A stretch of DNA of 44,226 bases from the UHGV virus genome UHGV-0346409; one strand, given 5' to 3'. The number at the start of each line of letters is the position of its first letter. The stretch's first letter is position 1. The notes under the pieces are model-generated. The model searched no databases. It saw only the letters and a list, made by a program, of their open reading frames with translations, and was not told the origin of the DNA. Below are positions 19,750 through 26,448 of this stretch, in pieces. A program made the position numbers and the translations under genes. The DNA is from a virus.

Positions 19750-20039
19750 AAAAAATCGACCTGAGAAAAGCTGCACGTGGTCGCGCTTGTACTGTGCGTA
19801 TCCCCGGTGTGTGCAATCACAATCCTGAAACCAGCGTACTGGCTCATTATCGTCTCGCCGGAATGTGCGGCACAGCCATCAAACCTCACGATATGCAGGG
19901 CGCTATCGCCTGCAGTGCGTGTCACGATGCCATCGACGGACGTACAAAAACGGATTACGAGCACGACTCATTGTTGTTGATGCACGCTGAGGGAGTTTTC
20001 AGAACACTGGCTATCTGGCGCGATGAGGAGTTTATCTGA
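19746..20039 (+). CDS. Cys-rich Nin-region protein (97 aa), possibly DUF1364/YbcO-like
   Basis: Multiple Cys/His (C..C, H..C); coupled to neighbours by ATGA overlaps; family by recall only. Confidence 0.4.
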   Translation: MKKIDLRKAARGRACTVRIPGVCNHNPETSVLAHYRLAGMCGTAIKPHDMQGAIACSACHDAIDGRTKTDYEHDSLLLMHAEGVFRTLAIWRDEEFI

Positions 20040-20710
20040 TGAGTAACGAGTATTTATTGGAATATACCCGCATAAAACTGCGCGCTGCATTACGGGATTT
20101 GTCTGGTGGTTCTAAGGGGCAACTGGAAGCATTGTGTGAGCACCCGCCAGCAGATAAAAACGCATACCCACGCAAACATATTCATCGTGTGCAACTGGAG
20201 GACCGGACCGTTGATGCTCTGGTTACGCCAGTTTATGCCCTGGAAAGTTTCAGCAGACGTCGTCCCGCGCCGCCGATGAATGATTATGAATTCGCTGATT
20301 CATCGTGGCGCCGCGCCGTGAATTCGCTCGACGTTAGCCAGCAGGCGTGGTTGCGCTATTGCTACGGTGGTCACCTGGCGTTCAAACACCAAACAGCTAT
20401 TTGTGAGGCTGTCTGGAGTCGCTATAAAGGACACATCCCCGCGTCAACTCAGAGAAAAGTAGCTAAGCGTCTGCTTTCGTTGGTGTGGTTGTCCGTGCAG
20501 GCGGTTGCAGCAGCAAATAAACGCGAGGATTTTAAGGAGATGGCTGGATCTGCGCTAGCTGGAATGTTGTCTGTTTCTCGTTCCACCTGGTGCGAAACAT
20601 ACTCCCCGCACTGGGTAGGAATGAAAGAGGCGGTGAGAGCACTTGATGAAATGGCACTTCTTGCAACTTTGCATCATTATCAAAACCATTTAGACGACGT
20701 TTGCGTATAA
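20039..20710 (+). CDS. Late-gene antiterminator, Q-like
   Basis: 223-aa ORF immediately upstream of a promoter-like TATAAT, a short-transcript terminator and the lysis cassette; family by recall and position. Confidence 0.55.
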   Translation: MSNEYLLEYTRIKLRAALRDLSGGSKGQLEALCEHPPADKNAYPRKHIHRVQLEDRTVDALVTPVYALESFSRRRPAPPMNDYEFADSSWRRAVNSLDVSQQAWLRYCYGGHLAFKHQTAICEAVWSRYKGHIPASTQRKVAKRLLSLVWLSVQAVAAANKREDFKEMAGSALAGMLSVSRSTWCETYSPHWVGMKEAVRALDEMALLATLHHYQNHLDDVCV

Positions 20711-20776
20711 TGCTTGCAAAACCGAACAAAACAGGCCATATTAAACGCTAATTTGGTATGTTGCCAAATTTCTAAG

Positions 20777-20806
20777 AACCTCGCCACGGCGGGGTTTTGT
20801 CGTTTC
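20777..20806 (+). terminator. Candidate tR'-like terminator downstream of the late promoter
   Basis: AACCTCGC-CACG-GCGGGGTT hairpin followed by a T-rich run, 60-90 nt after TATAAT at 20706-20711. Confidence 0.45.
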
Positions 20807-20822
20807 TGAATCAGGAAAAATC

Positions 20823-21206
20823 ATGTCTGAACCTCTAACCGCTGGCGTTGCTGCTGGCTCGGCGGGGGTGACGTTTGCTGCGTTATTTCCTGAGGCAACA
20901 CCTGCAGTGATGATCTGTGCGCTGGCTGGCGCAGCTCTCTATGTGTTGTCGTCCGGGCAGCATCGATTCTGGAAGCAGGTTATTTTCGCACTCATTTCGT
21001 TTGTTGGCGGTGTGTATTGCGCTGAGACAGCGTCAGCCATCATTACCGGTATTCTGAACGCGGTGCTGAGTCACCTGAACCCTCCCGTAACAGTAAAAGT
21101 CTCTCCCGCCATTGGTGCACTGGTTGCATCAGTAATCAGCGTTACATCACTGTTGCGGATCATGTCACAAGCTCGTTTATGGAAATCAGATAAGGGGATG
21201 AAATAA
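20823..21206 (+). CDS. Putative holin / lysis membrane protein (127 aa)
   Basis: Three to four hydrophobic segments; first gene after the late promoter. Confidence 0.5.
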   Translation: MSEPLTAGVAAGSAGVTFAALFPEATPAVMICALAGAALYVLSSGQHRFWKQVIFALISFVGGVYCAETASAIITGILNAVLSHLNPPVTVKVSPAIGALVASVISVTSLLRIMSQARLWKSDKGMK

Positions 21207-21490
21207 TGACCCTGCACTCTGTCCTCATTAATGCCAATGCAATTATCTGTCTGATGCTGGCACTGCGGTTGATGTTTTTTCAAAAAACAGGCCGCTATCG
21301 TTTTTTCATCTCACTAACTGCTTACCTGGCGATTCTGTCTGCTGCGTGGATAGCCCTACGAATTTTTTACGGGAAATACACGCAGGTTGATCCCGCAGAG
21401 TTCTTTCTCAATCTCACCATCTGTATTGCTGTCTGGCGGGCACGAGGGAATATTTCAAAAATAACAGGAGACAGGTATGACCGATCCTAA
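21206..21490 (+). CDS. Putative holin or lysis-associated membrane protein (94 aa)
   Basis: Three hydrophobic segments with charged C-terminus; coupled (TAATG) to the upstream gene. Confidence 0.45.
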   Translation: MTLHSVLINANAIICLMLALRLMFFQKTGRYRFFISLTAYLAILSAAWIALRIFYGKYTQVDPAEFFLNLTICIAVWRARGNISKITGDRYDRS

Positions 21491-21956
21491 ATGGCTAATT
21501 GAGGCACGAAAAAATCTCGGCATTCGGGAAATGAAAGGGAAGCAACATGCTGCAGAAATTGTGCAGTACTGGAAAGATATCAAACGCGGCGGCATTAAGG
21601 ATGATGAAACCCCGTGGTGCGCTGCCTTCACCGGAGCAATGCTGGAACGTGTAGGTATTCGCTCAACGCGTTTTGAGTCTGCGAATTCTTATCTCGATTG
21701 GGGTAATGAACTGAAGGAACCCGCCTATGGATGCATTGCTATTCTGTCTCGGTCTGGCGGTGGTCACGTTGGCTTTGTTGTCGGGAAAAATGCCGCCGGG
21801 GATTTAATGATTTTGGGTGGTAACCAGGCAGATGAAGTAAATATCAAAGCTTTTCCTCGTTCCCGCGTAACAGGCTACCGCTGGCCAGCAGGCCAAACTG
21901 ATGTTCCACAATCACTTCCATTCGTGAATGCTGAGAAATCTATCTCAGAAGCGTAG
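21477..21956 (+). CDS. Putative endolysin, cysteine-peptidase type (CHAP/NlpC-P60-like)
   Basis: AGGAG RBS; candidate catalytic Cys (PWCAAF) and His (GGGHVGFV); position in lysis cassette. Confidence 0.55.
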   Translation: MTDPKWLIEARKNLGIREMKGKQHAAEIVQYWKDIKRGGIKDDETPWCAAFTGAMLERVGIRSTRFESANSYLDWGNELKEPAYGCIAILSRSGGGHVGFVVGKNAAGDLMILGGNQADEVNIKAFPRSRVTGYRWPAGQTDVPQSLPFVNAEKSISEA

Positions 21957-21963
21957 GTAAAAC

Positions 21964-22158
21964 GTGAAAAAACTTCTCTTAGCTGTCGCGTTCTTCACGC
22001 TGGCAGGCTGCACACATTCGACATACACCGAAGCGACTCGCGCTGACGACAGCAGTATTAAACACGTGACGATCGCGCCGGGTACGAAGATTACAACAGC
22101 GAACGGTGGTTGTATTGATTCAACCGGGGCAGTGGCTTCATGCCCCGTTGGAAAATAG
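21964..22158 (+). CDS. Small lipoprotein (64 aa), possible outer-membrane spanin-like component
   Basis: Signal peptide with lipobox LAGC; GTG start; no partner inner-membrane spanin found. Confidence 0.45.
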   Translation: MKKLLLAVAFFTLAGCTHSTYTEATRADDSSIKHVTIAPGTKITTANGGCIDSTGAVASCPVGK

Positions 22159-22296
22159 GGTAATTTATCTTAATGAATTGACGATTGGTCATTTGGCCCA
22201 GGCAACCTGACCACACAAAGGTGCTAAAGACAGAATCATAAATATGACATATTTTTAAATGCCGATTTAACTGGGTATTTTTTAATAGGAAATTAT

Positions 22297-22575
22297 ATGT
22301 CACAGTTTTTGTTCGTTGGTGGGCCTTTTCACGGTCGTGTTGAAGACATTTATTCTAATTCCGCTATTGAACCCGTAGGTAGCACGGAGTTAAGGGTTTC
22401 TGTGGGGGATGAGGTAGTAATTTATGAACGCTCCGATTTTAGTCGATGGAATGGACCGCATTATCGCGTTGCAGTTGCAAATGGCGCGAGTGAGTTAATT
22501 CCTCAGACTATCGACGAGATGAATTATCACACATCTAAAATTTCTCCTATTTCGAAAGTTACTAGCACTGACTAA
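22297..22575 (+). CDS. Hypothetical protein (92 aa)
   Basis: AGGA RBS upstream of ATG. Confidence 0.4.
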   Translation: MSQFLFVGGPFHGRVEDIYSNSAIEPVGSTELRVSVGDEVVIYERSDFSRWNGPHYRVAVANGASELIPQTIDEMNYHTSKISPISKVTSTD

Positions 22576-22913
22576 TAGCCCGGATAGTGACCTTCAAAGA
22601 TGTGCACGGGATGTTTTGTACGTGCATATTCAGCAAGGATTTTGTTTGTTAAAGGTGTCTTGAGTGTTGTTGGCTCTTTTAATAGATCGATGGCATCAAG
22701 ACGCCTTAGTGCATCGCCCTTCAGATAATTTATCGTAATGGTTGTGATTAAAAAATCACCGCAAAAACCACTGCAATGAATTTTCCAGCACGTATCGTGA
22801 TTTGTCCATGTGGCATCAGAGCCGCATACAGGGCAATTTTTTGATTCCTGCATACCAATAACCATAGAGCATTTCTCTTCATTGAATGTTCGAGTTAAAA
22901 GCATAGACGACAT
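22572..22913 (-). CDS. Cys-rich hypothetical protein (113 aa), antisense moron in the late region
   Basis: CPVCG..C..HC..C cluster; opposite strand to the late operon. Confidence 0.4.
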   Translation of the reverse strand: MSSMLLTRTFNEEKCSMVIGMQESKNCPVCGSDATWTNHDTCWKIHCSGFCGDFLITTITINYLKGDALRRLDAIDLLKEPTTLKTPLTNKILAEYARTKHPVHIFEGHYPGY

Positions 22914-22944
22914 CTGGGCACCATGAGAATACAGTAGGATTTAA

Positions 22945-23112
22945 TTACATGAGCTAACCGGGACTGGGCTTGAGCTTCAGAAGCGATTCCTGTCCGAGTA
23001 CGTCAAATCATGTGTATCACCGAAAGAATGGTGTGACGCGCAGGGACTGAGCTTCGCAACAGCTCGCCGACGTATAAAAAACAACTGCGCAATGTGCCAA
23101 AGAGCTGGTGGC
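22945..23112 (+). pseudogene. Start-less ORF fragment with terminase-small-subunit-like HTH (recombination remnant)
   Basis: Open frame encoding ..LQKRFLSEYVKSCVSPKEWCDAQGLSFATARRRIKNN.. with no start codon; stop at 23113-23115. Confidence 0.3.
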
Positions 23113-23181
23113 TGATGAAAGAGACGCTTTACTTAAACGAGAGGCCGCCTTTTTGTTTTAAGGCGGCACACATTCAACAGG

Positions 23182-23427
23182 TTAAGGTAACCGATTTGAC
23201 CATTTAGTTGCACGCCAGTTGTTCTGAATCATAATCTCCTCAAGTATCTCATCTGAAGGCTCTGCTTCGCCGCTTAACCATTCTCTTAAAGTTGGACAAT
23301 GTAGGTAAGAGGAGTTCGCACGATAAAAAGATACGATGGCGTCCTCTGATAACTTCTCAGGAAATTTTTTGGGGTCAGCTTCTTTTAATATTACGCTCAT
23401 TAAGGCTTCGATTTTTTCTTTGTTCAT
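23182..23427 (-). CDS. Hypothetical protein (81 aa from ATG 23427), AT-rich
   Basis: Clean acidic sequence from the internal ATG; the longer track ORF upstream is low-complexity; no clear RBS. Confidence 0.3.
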   Translation of the reverse strand: MNKEKIEALMSVILKEADPKKFPEKLSEDAIVSFYRANSSYLHCPTLREWLSGEAEPSDEILEEIMIQNNWRATKWSNRLP

Positions 23428-23799
23428 TTTTTTTGTGTGCTCATGGTTGTTGCTTTTCTGTAAGAATATCAATAATTTCAAGATATATACACATAGGGAA
23501 AACTTTGTTCGGTAGTCTATCGATACAGCGCAAAAGGATGGCTCGCTGCCAAAGTGAAAGCTTACGCTGATAATGAGATACACAAAGCTGATGTATGCAA
23601 ACAAGTACGCCGCGAGGCTACAGTCGAGTTTGATGAACCTGATGCGAGCCCCCGATTCCTGTCCTGAAAGGGATATAGCCCCCCTGGTCGCGGGTCCTTT
23701 CCGAAATTCAAAACACCGAGGGTCGGTAGACGCGCAAAAACTCACTCATTTTTAGTATTTTTTCATTTTATGTATTTCCGGTTCCGGTGAGGATTTTTA

Positions 23800-24366
23800 A
23801 TGGCAAGTCAGGCTGAGGTCGCAGCACATTTACTGCTATCAGATCGTCGTCTGCGCGATCTCGCAAAACTTCCGGGAGCACCAGTCCCACAAGGACGTGG
23901 TGATTGGGAGCTAGACGCCTGGCGCCATTTCTATATTCATTATCTCCGGAGTAATAGACGCGACACAGTTGGTACTGACGAACCGGAAGTGGGGGACAAT
24001 TCTCCCGAAAAAAATCGCGAGCAGTGGCTGAAAAATGAGGAACGACAGGAGCGAATCCTGATGGCTCGCGTGAAACGCCGCATTCTTGCTAAACGCTACG
24101 CGCCAATTGAATTAATCAGCGTCGCTGTATCTCGCGTCGCAGTTGAATTACGTACCCGTGTCGAATCGTGGCCACCACGGTTGAAAAAGGTGTGGCCTGA
24201 AATGCCGCAGGAGGCGAGCAGTGTTTTACGAGAGGAGCTGGCGATAGCCCTGAATGAACTGGCAGACATACGAGTCGACTTCAGCGATTACGATGTCAGC
24301 GATATCGAACGCGATCTCGACAGGGTTGAATCCCTTGCGCGTGACGATACCGATGACGGGGGTTGA
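23800..24366 (+). CDS. Terminase small subunit (lambda Nu1-like)
   Basis: 188-aa ORF immediately upstream of and overlapping the large terminase gene; GAGG RBS; assignment by position and general resemblance. Confidence 0.55.
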   Translation: MASQAEVAAHLLLSDRRLRDLAKLPGAPVPQGRGDWELDAWRHFYIHYLRSNRRDTVGTDEPEVGDNSPEKNREQWLKNEERQERILMARVKRRILAKRYAPIELISVAVSRVAVELRTRVESWPPRLKKVWPEMPQEASSVLREELAIALNELADIRVDFSDYDVSDIERDLDRVESLARDDTDDGG

Positions 24367-26218
24367 GTGGGCTGATAAATATTTTTATCTCCCTGAGGGC
24401 TCCAGCCACATCGCTGGCCACTGGACGACTCAGCCGGTCCAGGTAGTGATGCTCAATATGATGACTAACGACGCGATAAAAATCGTGTCTGTTCGCAAAT
24501 CAGCTCGTCTCGGTTATACAAAAATACTCGTCGCGGCGCTGCTCTATTTCGCTGAGCACAAAAAACGTAGTGCCGTGGTCTATCAGCCTATCGATGACGA
24601 ATCGGATGGATTTGTTGCCGACGAGGTTGACCCCGCTATCGCCGAAATGCCGGTGATTCAGAAAATTTTCCCCGACTGGGATAAAAGCAACGAGCGTAAC
24701 AATCTCCAGCGTAAAGAAATGAGCGGCGCGATTATTGATTTTCGCGGCGCGAGTGCACCAGGAAATTTCCGGCGACTAACGAAACAGGTTGTCGAGGGTG
24801 ACGAAGTTGACGGCTGGCCGCTGGAAGTTGCCAAAAAAGGCAAAGGCGAGGGCTCGCCCATCGAACTGGCGCTCGTTCGAATTAAAGGGGCAGCGTACCC
24901 GAAGGCGATTTTCGGCTCGACGCCAACCGTCACCGGAAAAAGTCATATTGAAATGCTGGAGGATGCCGCTGACCTGACGTTTCGTTTTTACCTGAAATGT
25001 CCGCATTGTGGCGAGGAGCAGGTCCTGGTATTTGGTTTCGACGGCATCGAATATGGCCTCAAATGGGATAATAGCCTGCAGACAAATGAGGCGAAATCGT
25101 CGTCCGCGTATTACCAGTGCTGCCACTGTCCTGAGCATTTTTACTATCGCGATCTCGAAAAAATGGAGCTCGCGGGGCGCTGGATAGCAGAGGACTGCAC
25201 CTGGACGCGGGACGGTATTCGTTTTTTTGATCACGACGGTGGTGTCGTTCGCGCGCCGAAACACGCGGCGATCGTGATAAACGCCATGTATTCGCTGAAT
25301 CTCGACGGCTGGGGCGAGATTGTCAGCGAGTGGCTGAAAGCGAAGGGCGATCCGCTCAAAGAAAAGACGTTTCATAACACGACGCTCGGCGAACTCTGGA
25401 GTGACGTAGCCAGCGAGCAGCTGGAGCACGATATTCTGGTTAATCGCCGGGAAAAATACGCCAGCCAGGTTCCTGACGGTGTTGTTTATCTGACCGGCGG
25501 CATCGACTCTCAGACGTCCGGTCGCTACGAGTGTTACGTGTGGGGCTGGGGAGTGGAGGAGGAGTGCTGGCTGATTGATAAAACAATCGTCCTCGGTCGC
25601 TACGACGAGGAGGACACGCTGCAGCGCGTCGACGGAGTGATTCGCAAACAATACCGGCGCAGCGACGGGACCACAATCGGCGTCAGTCGCTGGGCGTGGG
25701 ATACCGGTGGTATAGATGCGCAGGTCGTTTATAACCGCTCGCTGAAACTCGGTCCGCTGTGGGTCATTCCAATTAAAGGTGCGAGTTCATACGGTCAGCC
25801 AGTCGTAAATATGCCGCGTACACGTAACGCGAATAAAGTCTATTTGTCGTTAATCGGTACTGATACGGCAAAAGATTTGCTCGCAATGCGCCTGCCGCTG
25901 GAACCCGATTCTAAATCGGCGACACCAAGTGCGATTCATTTTCCCAACGACGACGAAATATTCGGCACGACAGAGGCAAAACAGCTCGTCTCTGAAGTTC
26001 TGATCCCGAAACTGATTAACGGTCGCGTCGTTTATCGCTGGGACAACCAGGGCCGGCGAAATGAGGCGCTCGACTGCTGGGTATACGCGCTGGCAGCGCT
26101 ACGTATCAGTAAAATTCGTTTCCAGCTCAATCTCGAGACGCTCGCTGAGCAACGGAAAAAATCACAAAACAAACTGTCTCTCGAGGAGATGGCCAGAATG
26201 CTCGGAGGGAGCTCATGA
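24254..26218 (+). CDS. A: Terminase large subunit (lambda gpA-like)
   Basis: Long collinear matches to lambda gpA by recall (VEWAD.YYLP, KSAR.GY.K, CPHCGEEQ, TTLGE.W, YLT.GIDSQ, WGWG..EE.WLID, IPIKGAS.YG.PV, NEALDC.VYALAALRIS). Start may be 24254, 24293 or 24353. Confidence 0.9.
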   Translation: MNWQTYESTSAITMSAISNAISTGLNPLRVTIPMTGVEWADKYFYLPEGSSHIAGHWTTQPVQVVMLNMMTNDAIKIVSVRKSARLGYTKILVAALLYFAEHKKRSAVVYQPIDDESDGFVADEVDPAIAEMPVIQKIFPDWDKSNERNNLQRKEMSGAIIDFRGASAPGNFRRLTKQVVEGDEVDGWPLEVAKKGKGEGSPIELALVRIKGAAYPKAIFGSTPTVTGKSHIEMLEDAADLTFRFYLKCPHCGEEQVLVFGFDGIEYGLKWDNSLQTNEAKSSSAYYQCCHCPEHFYYRDLEKMELAGRWIAEDCTWTRDGIRFFDHDGGVVRAPKHAAIVINAMYSLNLDGWGEIVSEWLKAKGDPLKEKTFHNTTLGELWSDVASEQLEHDILVNRREKYASQVPDGVVYLTGGIDSQTSGRYECYVWGWGVEEECWLIDKTIVLGRYDEEDTLQRVDGVIRKQYRRSDGTTIGVSRWAWDTGGIDAQVVYNRSLKLGPLWVIPIKGASSYGQPVVNMPRTRNANKVYLSLIGTDTAKDLLAMRLPLEPDSKSATPSAIHFPNDDEIFGTTEAKQLVSEVLIPKLINGRVVYRWDNQGRRNEALDCWVYALAALRISKIRFQLNLETLAEQRKKSQNKLSLEEMARMLGGSS

Positions 26219-26448
26219 TGTCGCGCGAGGTTTTAACAGAACGGCTGCTGGAAGCTGAAATTGCCCTGCACAAATTATTAACGGGTAGATCGACTGTATC
26301 GCTGTCTCACGGCGATTCAGCGGGAAATAACCGGAGCTATCAATACTCACAGGCGAGTATTGAACAGCTCCGAACGTACATTATCGAGCTGAAATCACAG
26401 CTCGGTCTGAGTACGGGACGCCGCCGTCCCGTGGGAGTTCGATTATGA
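26215..26448 (+). CDS. W: Head-tail joining protein (lambda gpW-like)
   Basis: 77-aa ORF resembling lambda W by recall (..AL..L.TG..V.....D....Y....I..L.....); coupled to terminase and portal genes. Confidence 0.75.
   Translation: MMSREVLTERLLEAEIALHKLLTGRSTVSLSHGDSAGNNRSYQYSQASIEQLRTYIIELKSQLGLSTGRRRPVGVRL

Follow-up and report, generated by a model that had tools for sequence, protein, structure and literature searches.

The region separating the lysis genes from the packaging genes in this prophage is very probably a recombination scar combined with an accessory-gene cassette, located in the usual cargo slot of lambdoid phages. The window analyzed is the whole sequence of UHGV-0346409 (44,226 nt), to which all coordinates refer; the prophage is of the lambdoid type and its host is E. 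coli. The scar is of the ordinary sort found in mosaic phages and not a new type of element, and the locus leaves current understanding unchallenged. It nevertheless provides a clean case of lambdoid prophage rebuilding, dated by decay, in which a 180-bp stub of a dead gene marks the join between two packaging systems and still appears to act as a handle for the swapping of accessory genes. A first-pass annotation had described two antisense ORFs, a start-less terminase-like frame and an inverted repeat in this region, and had proposed that a different packaging module was replaced and that morons were acquired. These four features all exist where they had been placed, and the replacement is borne out, the stub being of the terS type and the downstream genes of the Nu1 and gpA types. 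The acquisition of morons holds for the cargo found at 22168-23131 and fails for the antisense 81-aa ORF and the hairpin, which both belong to the conserved core in close relatives.

Pairwise BLAST and comparison of junctions delimited an accessory block of 964 bp (22168-23131) that includes a DUF8847 ORF, a zinc-ribbon ORF and, at its right end, the terminase stub. The variable segment thus begins further to the left than initially proposed, with the addition of the plus-strand 92-aa DUF8847 ORF. The left border of the slot is formed by the last gene of the lysis module, which encodes a 64-aa lipoprotein (21964-22158, plus strand). Conserved sequence stops a few bases past the stop codon of this gene (GGGTAATTTA, to 22167), the empty-site relatives L004 and L017 remain homologous up to 22167-22173, and strain GF43 diverges on this side after GGGTAATT. 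The same prophage type devoid of the block was found in 419 of 5426 complete E. coli genomes, mostly ST131, in which the lysis genes are joined straight to position 23128 across a TTTA microhomology; positions 20001-22173 and 23128-26300 of the window are collinear with this empty-site form. The cargo of the window is present in 14 E. coli genomes and in E. whittamii. An imperfect direct repeat (9/10) flanks the block (TTTATCTTAA at 22164-22173 and TTTACTTAA at 23128-23136) and the empty site has a single copy of it. The two states of the site may result either from insertion into an empty site or from deletion from a filled one. The G+C content of the block is 38-43%, compared with about 50% on both sides; stretch by stretch, the G+C fraction is 0.375-0.455 at 22100-22900, 0.345-0.36 at 23300-23600 and ~0.45-0.57 in the lysis and terminase genes. 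Hence, segment 22168-23131 is present or absent at the same site among close relatives and has a base composition unlike that of neighboring genes, two properties by which morons are recognized. Since close relatives have other cargo or no block at the same place, the locus is a mosaic junction with accessory genes that were acquired.

The right end of the block (22949-23127, plus strand) is a pseudogene, i.e. the decayed 5' stub of a small-terminase gene of the Terminase_2 type, according to PHROG 51 matches, DNA alignment and PGAP pseudogene calls. It retains codons 1 to ~72 of ~330, corresponding to the N-terminal helix-turn-helix (HTH) extension and linker alone. The start-less plus-strand frame reported at 22945-23112, whose HTH had been likened to the N-termini of small terminases, is confirmed by the PHROG 51 match. 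This frame has 56 codons from stop to stop; its sole in-frame ATG, GTG or TTG lies 8 codons before the end, and no alternative start makes it a complete gene. The raw frame matches positions 8-49 of the PHROG 51 profile (E 6.6e-11, far beyond chance) and the frame-repaired stub matches positions 1-54 (E 4.8e-16). The stub also matches PHROG 32222 and annotated terS genes (tblastn, E 3e-10). Intact homologues were detected by tblastn and blastn in Klebsiella phages and E. coli prophages, with 61% amino-acid and 74% nucleotide identity to the intact 334-aa terS of Klebsiella phages. The relic ATG is kept at 22949 and is followed by AGC and then by TAA as codon 3 (22955-22957). Furthermore, two extra bases cause +1 shifts at ~22952 and ~22969, and the frame shifts again near 23090, beyond which homology goes on (TAQCAKELVADE) to ~23120-23127.

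The stub is homologous over its first ~72 codons to the PHROG 51/Terminase_2 terS genes, such as that of Klebsiella phage ST405-OXA48phi1.3 (QBP08130.1, 334 aa), and shares their genomic position directly 3' of lysis genes and accessory ORFs. Intact terS genes are found at this same spot in relatives, followed by the large terminase gene. However, the stub differs from them by the lack of the Terminase_2 domain (the oligomerization/core domain), of the C-terminus, of an in-frame start and of a partner large terminase. In intact relatives, Terminase_2 (PF03592) begins at residue 76, i.e. past the end of the stub; the latter has no Pfam match and misses the entire domain. Similarly, terL overlaps the terS stop in intact relatives, whereas no partner large terminase gene is found directly 3' of the stub, which is followed, in this order, by the hairpin, the antisense ORF, ~370 bp of non-coding DNA and the Nu1-like and gpA genes. 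The stub is a pseudogene and not a functional member of the terS family, and PGAP/RefSeq annotates it in some strains as a pseudogene (incomplete or frameshifted terminase small subunit). A continuation of the terS homology past 23128 into the core, which would imply that the empty site results from a deletion, was considered and rejected for lack of support: the sequences align poorly after ELVADE, and position 54 is the last one covered by the profile match. Among intact terS genes, the best reach 74-78% nucleotide identity, and none was found to exceed ~78% over the main part of the stub. A word-indexed protein search for a close donor terS returned the stub itself only, a scan of species-representative genomes found only the E. 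whittamii copy of the same arrangement, and the cargo of the window was never found adjoining an intact terS.

The lesions of the stub differ lineage by lineage. For instance, codon 3 of the TUM13936 stub is AAA and C22969 is missing, yet the ATG is out of frame; the E24377A-type stub reads MANRDWA-stop; that of GF43 has a good ribosome-binding site and an ATG, followed by a CAG to TAG change at codon 31. These data make it extremely improbable that the stub has been retained because it encodes a short HTH peptide or a regulatory RNA hindering the packaging of terS-type phages. Such a role would fit the persistence of the stub in several lineages, the HTH part of the frame that is open over 56 codons and, in the E24377A class, the chance upstream ATG that creates a complete 59-aa ORF, annotated as a protein by one source (P0013). 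However, the frame has no start codon in the window, every lineage carries different nonsense or frameshift lesions, the divergence of the GF43 stub (4.8%) equals that of the neighboring backbone, the 419 empty-site genomes do without the stub, and a search of Rfam for structured RNAs gave no match. As a pseudogene, the stub would rather have no protein function and decay freely.

The conserved core begins with a G+C-rich terminator-like hairpin on the minus strand. The inverted repeat reported at about 23141-23168 is indeed present and maps to 23144-23167, with an 8-bp stem (including 6 G-C pairs), an 8-nt loop and, on the minus strand, a free energy of -19.6 kcal/mol (z = -4.9). The 81-aa ORF ends 14 nt before it, and every relative examined keeps the hairpin with single-base variants, empty-site forms included; the two single substitutions observed, each preserving pairing on a different strand, are uninformative with respect to covariation. 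The antisense ORF reported at 23182-23427 (minus strand) also exists and encodes an acidic, predicted all-helical protein of 81 aa that matches PHROG 5191 (E 1.2e-54). The variable block contains neither this ORF nor the hairpin: both lie in sequence common to ~460 E. coli genomes, as components of the conserved packaging module (cos/Nu1-gpA). Compared with relatives, the ORF shows synonymous to non-synonymous codon changes of 4:5 and 7:7 with an intact frame, and its 5' half is deleted in ETEC1738. The single-sequence AF2 model of the protein is poor (pLDDT 64), no relative was found in the PDB, and the sole phage record with this protein is of the same prophage type. Further downstream, the plus strand encodes a Nu1-like small terminase subunit (23800-24366; PHROG 57, E 1e-38) and, 3' of it, a gpA-type large subunit (24254-26218), which form the matched packaging module of this prophage. 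The cos region presumably lies within 23430-23800, where we infer its position.

We propose that the ancestral late region would have carried lysis genes, cargo, terS and terL in this order. Illegitimate recombination at the TTTA microhomology, inside terS at codon ~72, would have joined this late region to a cos-type module that carried a hairpin terminator and the antisense 81-aa gene of its own at its start. Homology of the remaining stub to living terS genes on one side, and the conserved lysis genes on the other, would let homologous recombination swap the intervening cargo. The same stub is linked to three different cargo sets across strains, with breakpoints located within the stub at codons 2-3 and ~19. 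The E24377A class is identical to the window from 22953 rightwards and has unrelated cargo upstream, with a left border at 22127 instead of 22167. In GF43, the first ~19 codons of the stub come from another allele, whose identity to the 5' end of intact terS genes found in ~47 E. coli genomes is 96.7%. Moreover, E24377A and ETEC1738 share a 99.6%-identical patch (4 differences in 1.1 kb) within backbones that are ~5% diverged, and the end of this patch coincides, to within 1 nt, with the stub/core junction. Exchange between temperate phages and prophages is known to be homology-driven and tolerant of divergence, and to leave traces at fragment borders (De Paepe et al. 2014, PMC3945230). The locus resembles the exchanges described in that work by its recent fragments bordered by homology, its divergent partners and the use of prophage remnants as substrates, and differs from them by the nature of one anchor, a fragment of a dead gene measuring only ~180 bp. 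Among seven early-region ORFs scanned against Pfam in part, no Rad52-like gene or other phage recombinase was recognized.

The abrupt end of this patch between ~5% different flanks, as well as the 9/10 direct repeat around the block and its single copy at the empty site, would also be expected if cargo and stub formed a discrete mobile block with its own targeted insertion instead of being passively exchanged through flanking homology. We consider this improbable. Neither a transposase or integrase gene nor terminal inverted repeats were found in the block, which terminates on the right in a truncated gene, as illegitimate recombination typically produces, and the repeat is imperfect, TTTA alone being certain at the junction. 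Furthermore, the left border shifts in the E24377A class and the stub is constant while the cargo varies, as in homology-anchored exchange, which is the reading retained here.

Within the cargo, the Cys-rich minus-strand ORF initially reported at 22572-22913 (113 aa) exists and, judging from its conservation, is a real gene, probably shorter than this frame. Since relatives with 58%, 45% and 43% identity all start at Met17 and PGAP places the start there in W284, the likely gene extends over 22572-22865 (minus strand) and encodes a zinc-ribbon protein of 97 aa. These relatives retain the length, the start, the four cysteines and the C-terminal motif. Invariant features of the family include MVIG, CPxC-x16-C-x3-C, W20, N22, D24 and T25, the cysteine motif being invariant among six sequences down to 36% identity. 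The AF2 model is confident (pLDDT 88), with beta-hairpins in the four-Cys region; the C-terminal half is helical and ends with HYPGY. Compared with TUM13936, the gene shows 9 nucleotide changes, leading to 4 amino-acid changes, and an intact frame. Fold searches gave nothing significant. It could be argued that the region has no genes, the antisense ORFs being open only by chance in an AT-rich spacer: we found no strong ribosome-binding sites for these ORFs, no convincing consensus sigma-70 promoter upstream of either and no NCBIfam family match, and their gene families are very small. However, this is very unlikely given the constraints observed in zinc-ribbon relatives and the confident fold of the protein, and given that the 81-aa ORF has a strong PHROG match and remains open across 5%-diverged lineages, with similar numbers of synonymous and non-synonymous changes.

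Other prophages carry homologues of the zinc-ribbon gene in antisense orientation, in the interval separating lysis from packaging genes. This gene appears to be a portable moron, as it occupies the same slot in the same orientation in prophages with unrelated packaging modules; no conserved partner gene was found at these other loci. The sole functional lead is a Lar-like zinc ribbon of the restriction-alleviation type. The best Pfam match of the 113-aa ORF is Lar_restr_allev (PF14354) at residues 23-53, with 25.3 bits, i.e. below the gathering threshold of 28.6; the match to PHROG 599 (Lar-like) has an E of 0.048 only, and close homologues carry a precomputed PF14354 label. Like Lar of the Rac prophage, the protein is small, prophage-borne and has an N-terminal four-Cys zinc ribbon, but nothing in the 58-position Lar model corresponds to its helical C-terminal half of ~55 residues. 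The gene would most likely be expressed on its own from the prophage, assuming independent expression, and act on the host or on competing DNA.

Morons are defined as independent accessory units in phage genomes (PMC3594210). The two antisense genes may both be viewed as candidate morons. As for lambdoid morons (the HK97/HK022 concept; bor of lambda, antisense between Rz and cos), the extra DNA is missing in close relatives and the locus has a lower G+C content, lies between late-operon genes, is partly on the opposite strand and is followed by a hairpin. By contrast with Bor, the proteins encoded here are unrelated to it, have no lipoprotein signal and belong to no Pfam family at threshold. 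In lambda, bor is found on the opposite strand immediately before cos, which we take to be the position held here by the 81-aa ORF. Two small uncharacterized prophage gene families are thereby flagged in a slot that often holds host-affecting genes. Annotation of such prophages can also be improved: the stub should be labeled as a pseudogene, and the start of the zinc-ribbon gene placed at 22865 and, probably, that of the Nu1-like gene at 23800.

The other cargo gene is the 92-aa ORF (22297-22575, plus strand), retrieved from the ORF list, which has the orientation of the late operon; in strain CD09, its annotation reads DUF8847 domain protein. It has no match in the copy of Pfam searched, PHROGs, NCBIfam, PADLOC or phage records. 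Its stop overlaps by 4 nt that of the convergent zinc-ribbon ORF, and no terminator was found between the two. Both genes are always found together in the 14 E. coli genomes and E. whittamii, the slot is a classic site of prophage cargo and the zinc ribbon is Lar-like, which could evoke a two-gene defense or toxin-antitoxin-like system. Such a system is nonetheless quite unlikely: zinc-ribbon homologues elsewhere have unrelated neighbors, the only PADLOC match is negligible and not significant (PD-Lambda-5_A, E 0.023, 11.6 bits), and a convergent layout is unusual for an operon-type system. Moreover, the DUF8847 ORF, intact in E. whittamii, is frameshifted in TUM13936, where the zinc-ribbon gene is intact.

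A broader idea, which we regard as unlikely, is that the pre-terminase slot and its terS stub constitute a dedicated exchange point for anti-defense or defense cargo, the 97-aa zinc-ribbon family having an undescribed prophage function. If so, this family would for example alleviate restriction or exclude competing phages, and would travel in antisense orientation immediately ahead of packaging genes, whether or not accompanied by DUF8847. Spacers from E. coli type I-E CRISPR systems match, with proper PAMs, all three cargo sets of the slot, and one protospacer lies within the DUF8847 ORF at 22484-22515. The kilobase beside the end of the virion DNA could be a hot spot of spacer acquisition.

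The window is a lambdoid prophage of Escherichia that encodes an integrase at its left end; over 22200-23800 it shows 100% identity to prophages in the chromosomes of E. coli RM10042, W284, S42 and others. Its late region encodes a Q antiterminator (20039-20710), two holin-like proteins (20823-21490), a TIGR02594/CHAP-type endolysin (21477-21956) and a 64-aa lipoprotein (21964-22158). The region under study comes next, followed by genes encoding a Nu1-like small terminase (23800-24366; PHROG 57, E 1e-38), a gpA-type large terminase (24254-26218), gpW and the portal protein. The composition of the lysis module (20823-22158) is unusual: the best PHROG match of the endolysin is phrog_1259, the C-terminal lysozyme part of a baseplate hub protein (E 4e-47), and no inner-membrane spanin partner of the lipoprotein was recognisable within the module. 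The RefSeq version of the Nu1-like protein has 101 aa, equivalent to 24061-24366. Since the 188-aa ORF from ATG 23800 matches PHROG 57 across residues 1-186, the true start probably lies upstream of the RefSeq one.

Among 5426 complete E. coli genomes, the site between the lipoprotein gene and the packaging genes was found in four states: (i) empty, with a hairpin and an 81-aa ORF directly after the lipoprotein gene (419 genomes, of which nearly all share one allele, exemplified by an ST131 strain, plus YZMc3-1); (ii) occupied by the cargo of the window (14 genomes, and also Escherichia whittamii); (iii) the E24377A/ETEC1738 class, which has the same sequence as the window from 22953 onwards and is preceded by a different cargo, i.e. 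an 82-aa ORF (plus strand) and a 156-aa ORF (minus strand); (iv) GF43, which joins the window sequence at about 23004 and carries KilA-N, DUF6953 and YodC genes upstream. In the window, the left border of the site reads GGGTAATTTA followed by TCTTAATG and the right border GACGCTTTA followed by CTTAAACG, while the empty ST131 form reads GGGTAATTTA followed by CTTTAACG. The comparison of these junctions delimits an extra segment of 964 bp (22168-23131), joined at a TTTA microhomology inside an imperfect 9/10 direct repeat.

The first-pass annotation had proposed an insertion scar at 22572-23427, consisting of two antisense ORFs and a start-less small-terminase-like fragment, and had read it as a mosaic junction with acquired morons. 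All the listed features are present, and the existence of empty and alternative-cargo forms supports the mosaic reading. The variable block is real, but its true limits are 22168-23131 and it includes a DUF8847 ORF (22297-22575, plus strand). Similarly, one of the antisense ORFs, encoding a zinc ribbon (22572-22865), does belong to this block, whereas the 81-aa ORF (23182-23427, minus strand) and the hairpin (23144-23167) are part of the conserved core. The region is a mosaic junction carrying a gene remnant and morons. Features of this kind are well understood, and this one is partly annotated already.

The gene remnant, or stub (22949-23127, plus strand), is a decayed 5' piece of a small-terminase gene (terS). 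As had been noticed, the fragment lacks a usable start: the open frame 22945-23112 has 56 codons from stop to stop and its sole in-frame ATG/GTG/TTG lies 8 codons before its end. It matches positions 8-49 of the 261 of PHROG 51 ("terminase small subunit", E 6.6e-11). Its terminase origin was borne out by tblastn, which retrieved annotated small terminases from Klebsiella, Escherichia, Yersinia, Providencia and Salmonella phages with up to 61% identity; by blastn, the stub is 74% identical to Klebsiella phage genes. Alignment with the intact 334-aa gene of Klebsiella phage ST405-OXA48phi1.3 indicates that the ATG is kept at 22949, where the window reads ATG AGC TAA, and that two extra bases offset the helix-turn-helix (HTH) frame from this ATG. 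A second frame shift occurs after ...ARRRIKNN, past which the homology returns as TAQCAKELVADE (...TAQ..KCAEELVDDD, residues ~66-73 of the intact protein). Once conceptually repaired, the stub matches positions 1-54 of PHROG 51 (E 4.8e-16). Since the Pfam Terminase_2 domain of intact relatives begins at residue 76, the stub retains only the N-terminal HTH extension and the linker, without the core domain. PGAP already labels this stretch as an incomplete/frameshifted "terminase small subunit" pseudogene in W284 and ETEC1738. Only 24 genomes carry the stub at an identity of at least 90%, always within this prophage type.

The lesions differ between lineages. In the window, codon 3 is TAA and two insertions are present; in TUM13936, codon 3 is AAA, the C at 22969 is missing and the ATG is out of frame. 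The E24377A-class stub reads MANRDWA-stop, and a chance upstream ATG creates a 59-aa ORF that one source annotates. In GF43, a good ribosome-binding site and an ATG precede a CAG to TAG change at codon 31 and a 1-nt deletion. Such lineage-specific lesions are the pattern of a pseudogene free of coding constraint.

Furthermore, the stub is apparently reused as an exchange handle, which is of mild interest. The window and the E24377A class part at stub codons 2-3. GF43 owes its first ~19 codons and its ribosome-binding site to another allele, which shares 96.7% identity with the 5' end of the intact terS genes carried by about 47 other E. coli genomes. The cargo and stub of E24377A and ETEC1738 differ at 4 positions in 1.1 kb (99.6% identity; 3074-4177 of L002, the E24377A prophage, versus L007, that of ETEC1738; the stub part corresponds to window 22953-23127), whereas their flanks are ~5% apart in the lysis genes on the left and in the core from 23127 on the right. 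This patch, which stops at most 1 nt from the stub/core junction, looks as though the block had moved as a unit. Homology-driven exchanges among temperate phages and prophages leave traces at the edges of the exchanged fragments (PMC3945230), and the borders seen here fit such divergence-tolerant exchange.

Among the right-flank sequences of the window, of GF43, of ETEC1738 and of the empty-site forms, divergence is ~5% throughout and no clear grouping emerges, and the 3' part of the GF43 stub is 4.8% diverged, similar to the GF43 backbone. Hence, the stub/core junction is old. A microhomology deletion giving rise to the empty form is favoured by the extended repeat. The same product would result from one illegitimate crossover of a terS-type phage with an empty-type cos phage. 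The terS homology ends at 23127 and the conserved core starts at 23128; neither the alignment nor the PHROG 51 match of the repaired stub could demonstrate homology past 23127 into the core.

The zinc-ribbon family, tied to the slot preceding the packaging genes, is also of mild interest. Only four relatives emerged when 1.84 billion representatives were searched exhaustively with HMMER. The alignments of three (58%, 45% and 43% identity) begin at query Met17, which probably sets the gene at 97 aa, with MVIG, CPxC-x16-C-x3-C, a W, N, D and T, and a C-terminal HYPGY kept. The protein is predicted to be a four-Cys zinc ribbon with a helical half (AF2 pLDDT 88). Homologues lie antisense between endolysin/holin and packaging genes in two other Q-containing prophages, one with a ParB-like gene and a Terminase_6C-type terminase, the other with DUF1441/gpA genes. 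Their neighbours are unrelated, and the gene behaves as a portable single-gene moron. Its one functional lead is a Lar_restr_allev match that falls below threshold (25.3 vs 28.6 bits); solved and viral structures, searched by fold and by sequence, yielded no significant match. In the TUM13936 cargo copy (L011, 97.8% identical), a 1-nt insertion equivalent to window 22528 alters the C-terminus of the DUF8847 ORF, and the zinc-ribbon ORF is intact yet lacks PGAP annotation.

The 81-aa ORF (PHROG 5191, E 1e-54) is confined to this prophage type and lies where bor is found in lambda. It stays open across lineages 5% diverged, with synonymous to non-synonymous codon changes of 4:5 and 7:7. Downstream of it lies the hairpin, whose 8 base pairs include 6 G-C pairs and whose folding energy for the minus strand is -19.6 kcal/mol (z = -4.9). 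The A-run just upstream of its ATG (23427-23445, minus strand) varies in length among relatives, whose annotations give the ORF 86 aa by starting it at an ATG further upstream. Since this ATG is out of frame in the window (ATG AGC ACA CAA AAA AAA TGA), the conserved internal ATG at 23427 is the start there. In ETEC1738-type prophages, a ~300-bp deletion (L007 4370-4372, equivalent to window 23324-23624) removed the 5' half of the gene and the region upstream, and gpA is split in two, indicating that this copy is decaying. We infer that the antisense genes are expressed independently; no consensus promoter was found upstream of them. The G+C content of both antisense-gene regions is below that of their surroundings, as expected of morons (PMC3594210).

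Moreover, all three alternative cargo sets have 100% matches to 32-nt spacers of E. coli type I-E CRISPR arrays, each with an interference-proficient PAM, which adds some interest to the cargo. The protospacers lie in the DUF8847 ORF of the window (22484-22515, PAM ATG at 22481-22483; strains G3/10 and TUM1881), in the E24377A cargo (L002 3316-3347, PAM ATG; five strains at 100%, two at 97%) and on the minus strand of the GF43 cargo (L003 3874-3905, PAM AAG; strain 2017-02-2CC). Since they are ~1 kb from the presumed cos end, spacer acquisition may have a hot spot close to the end of the virion DNA.
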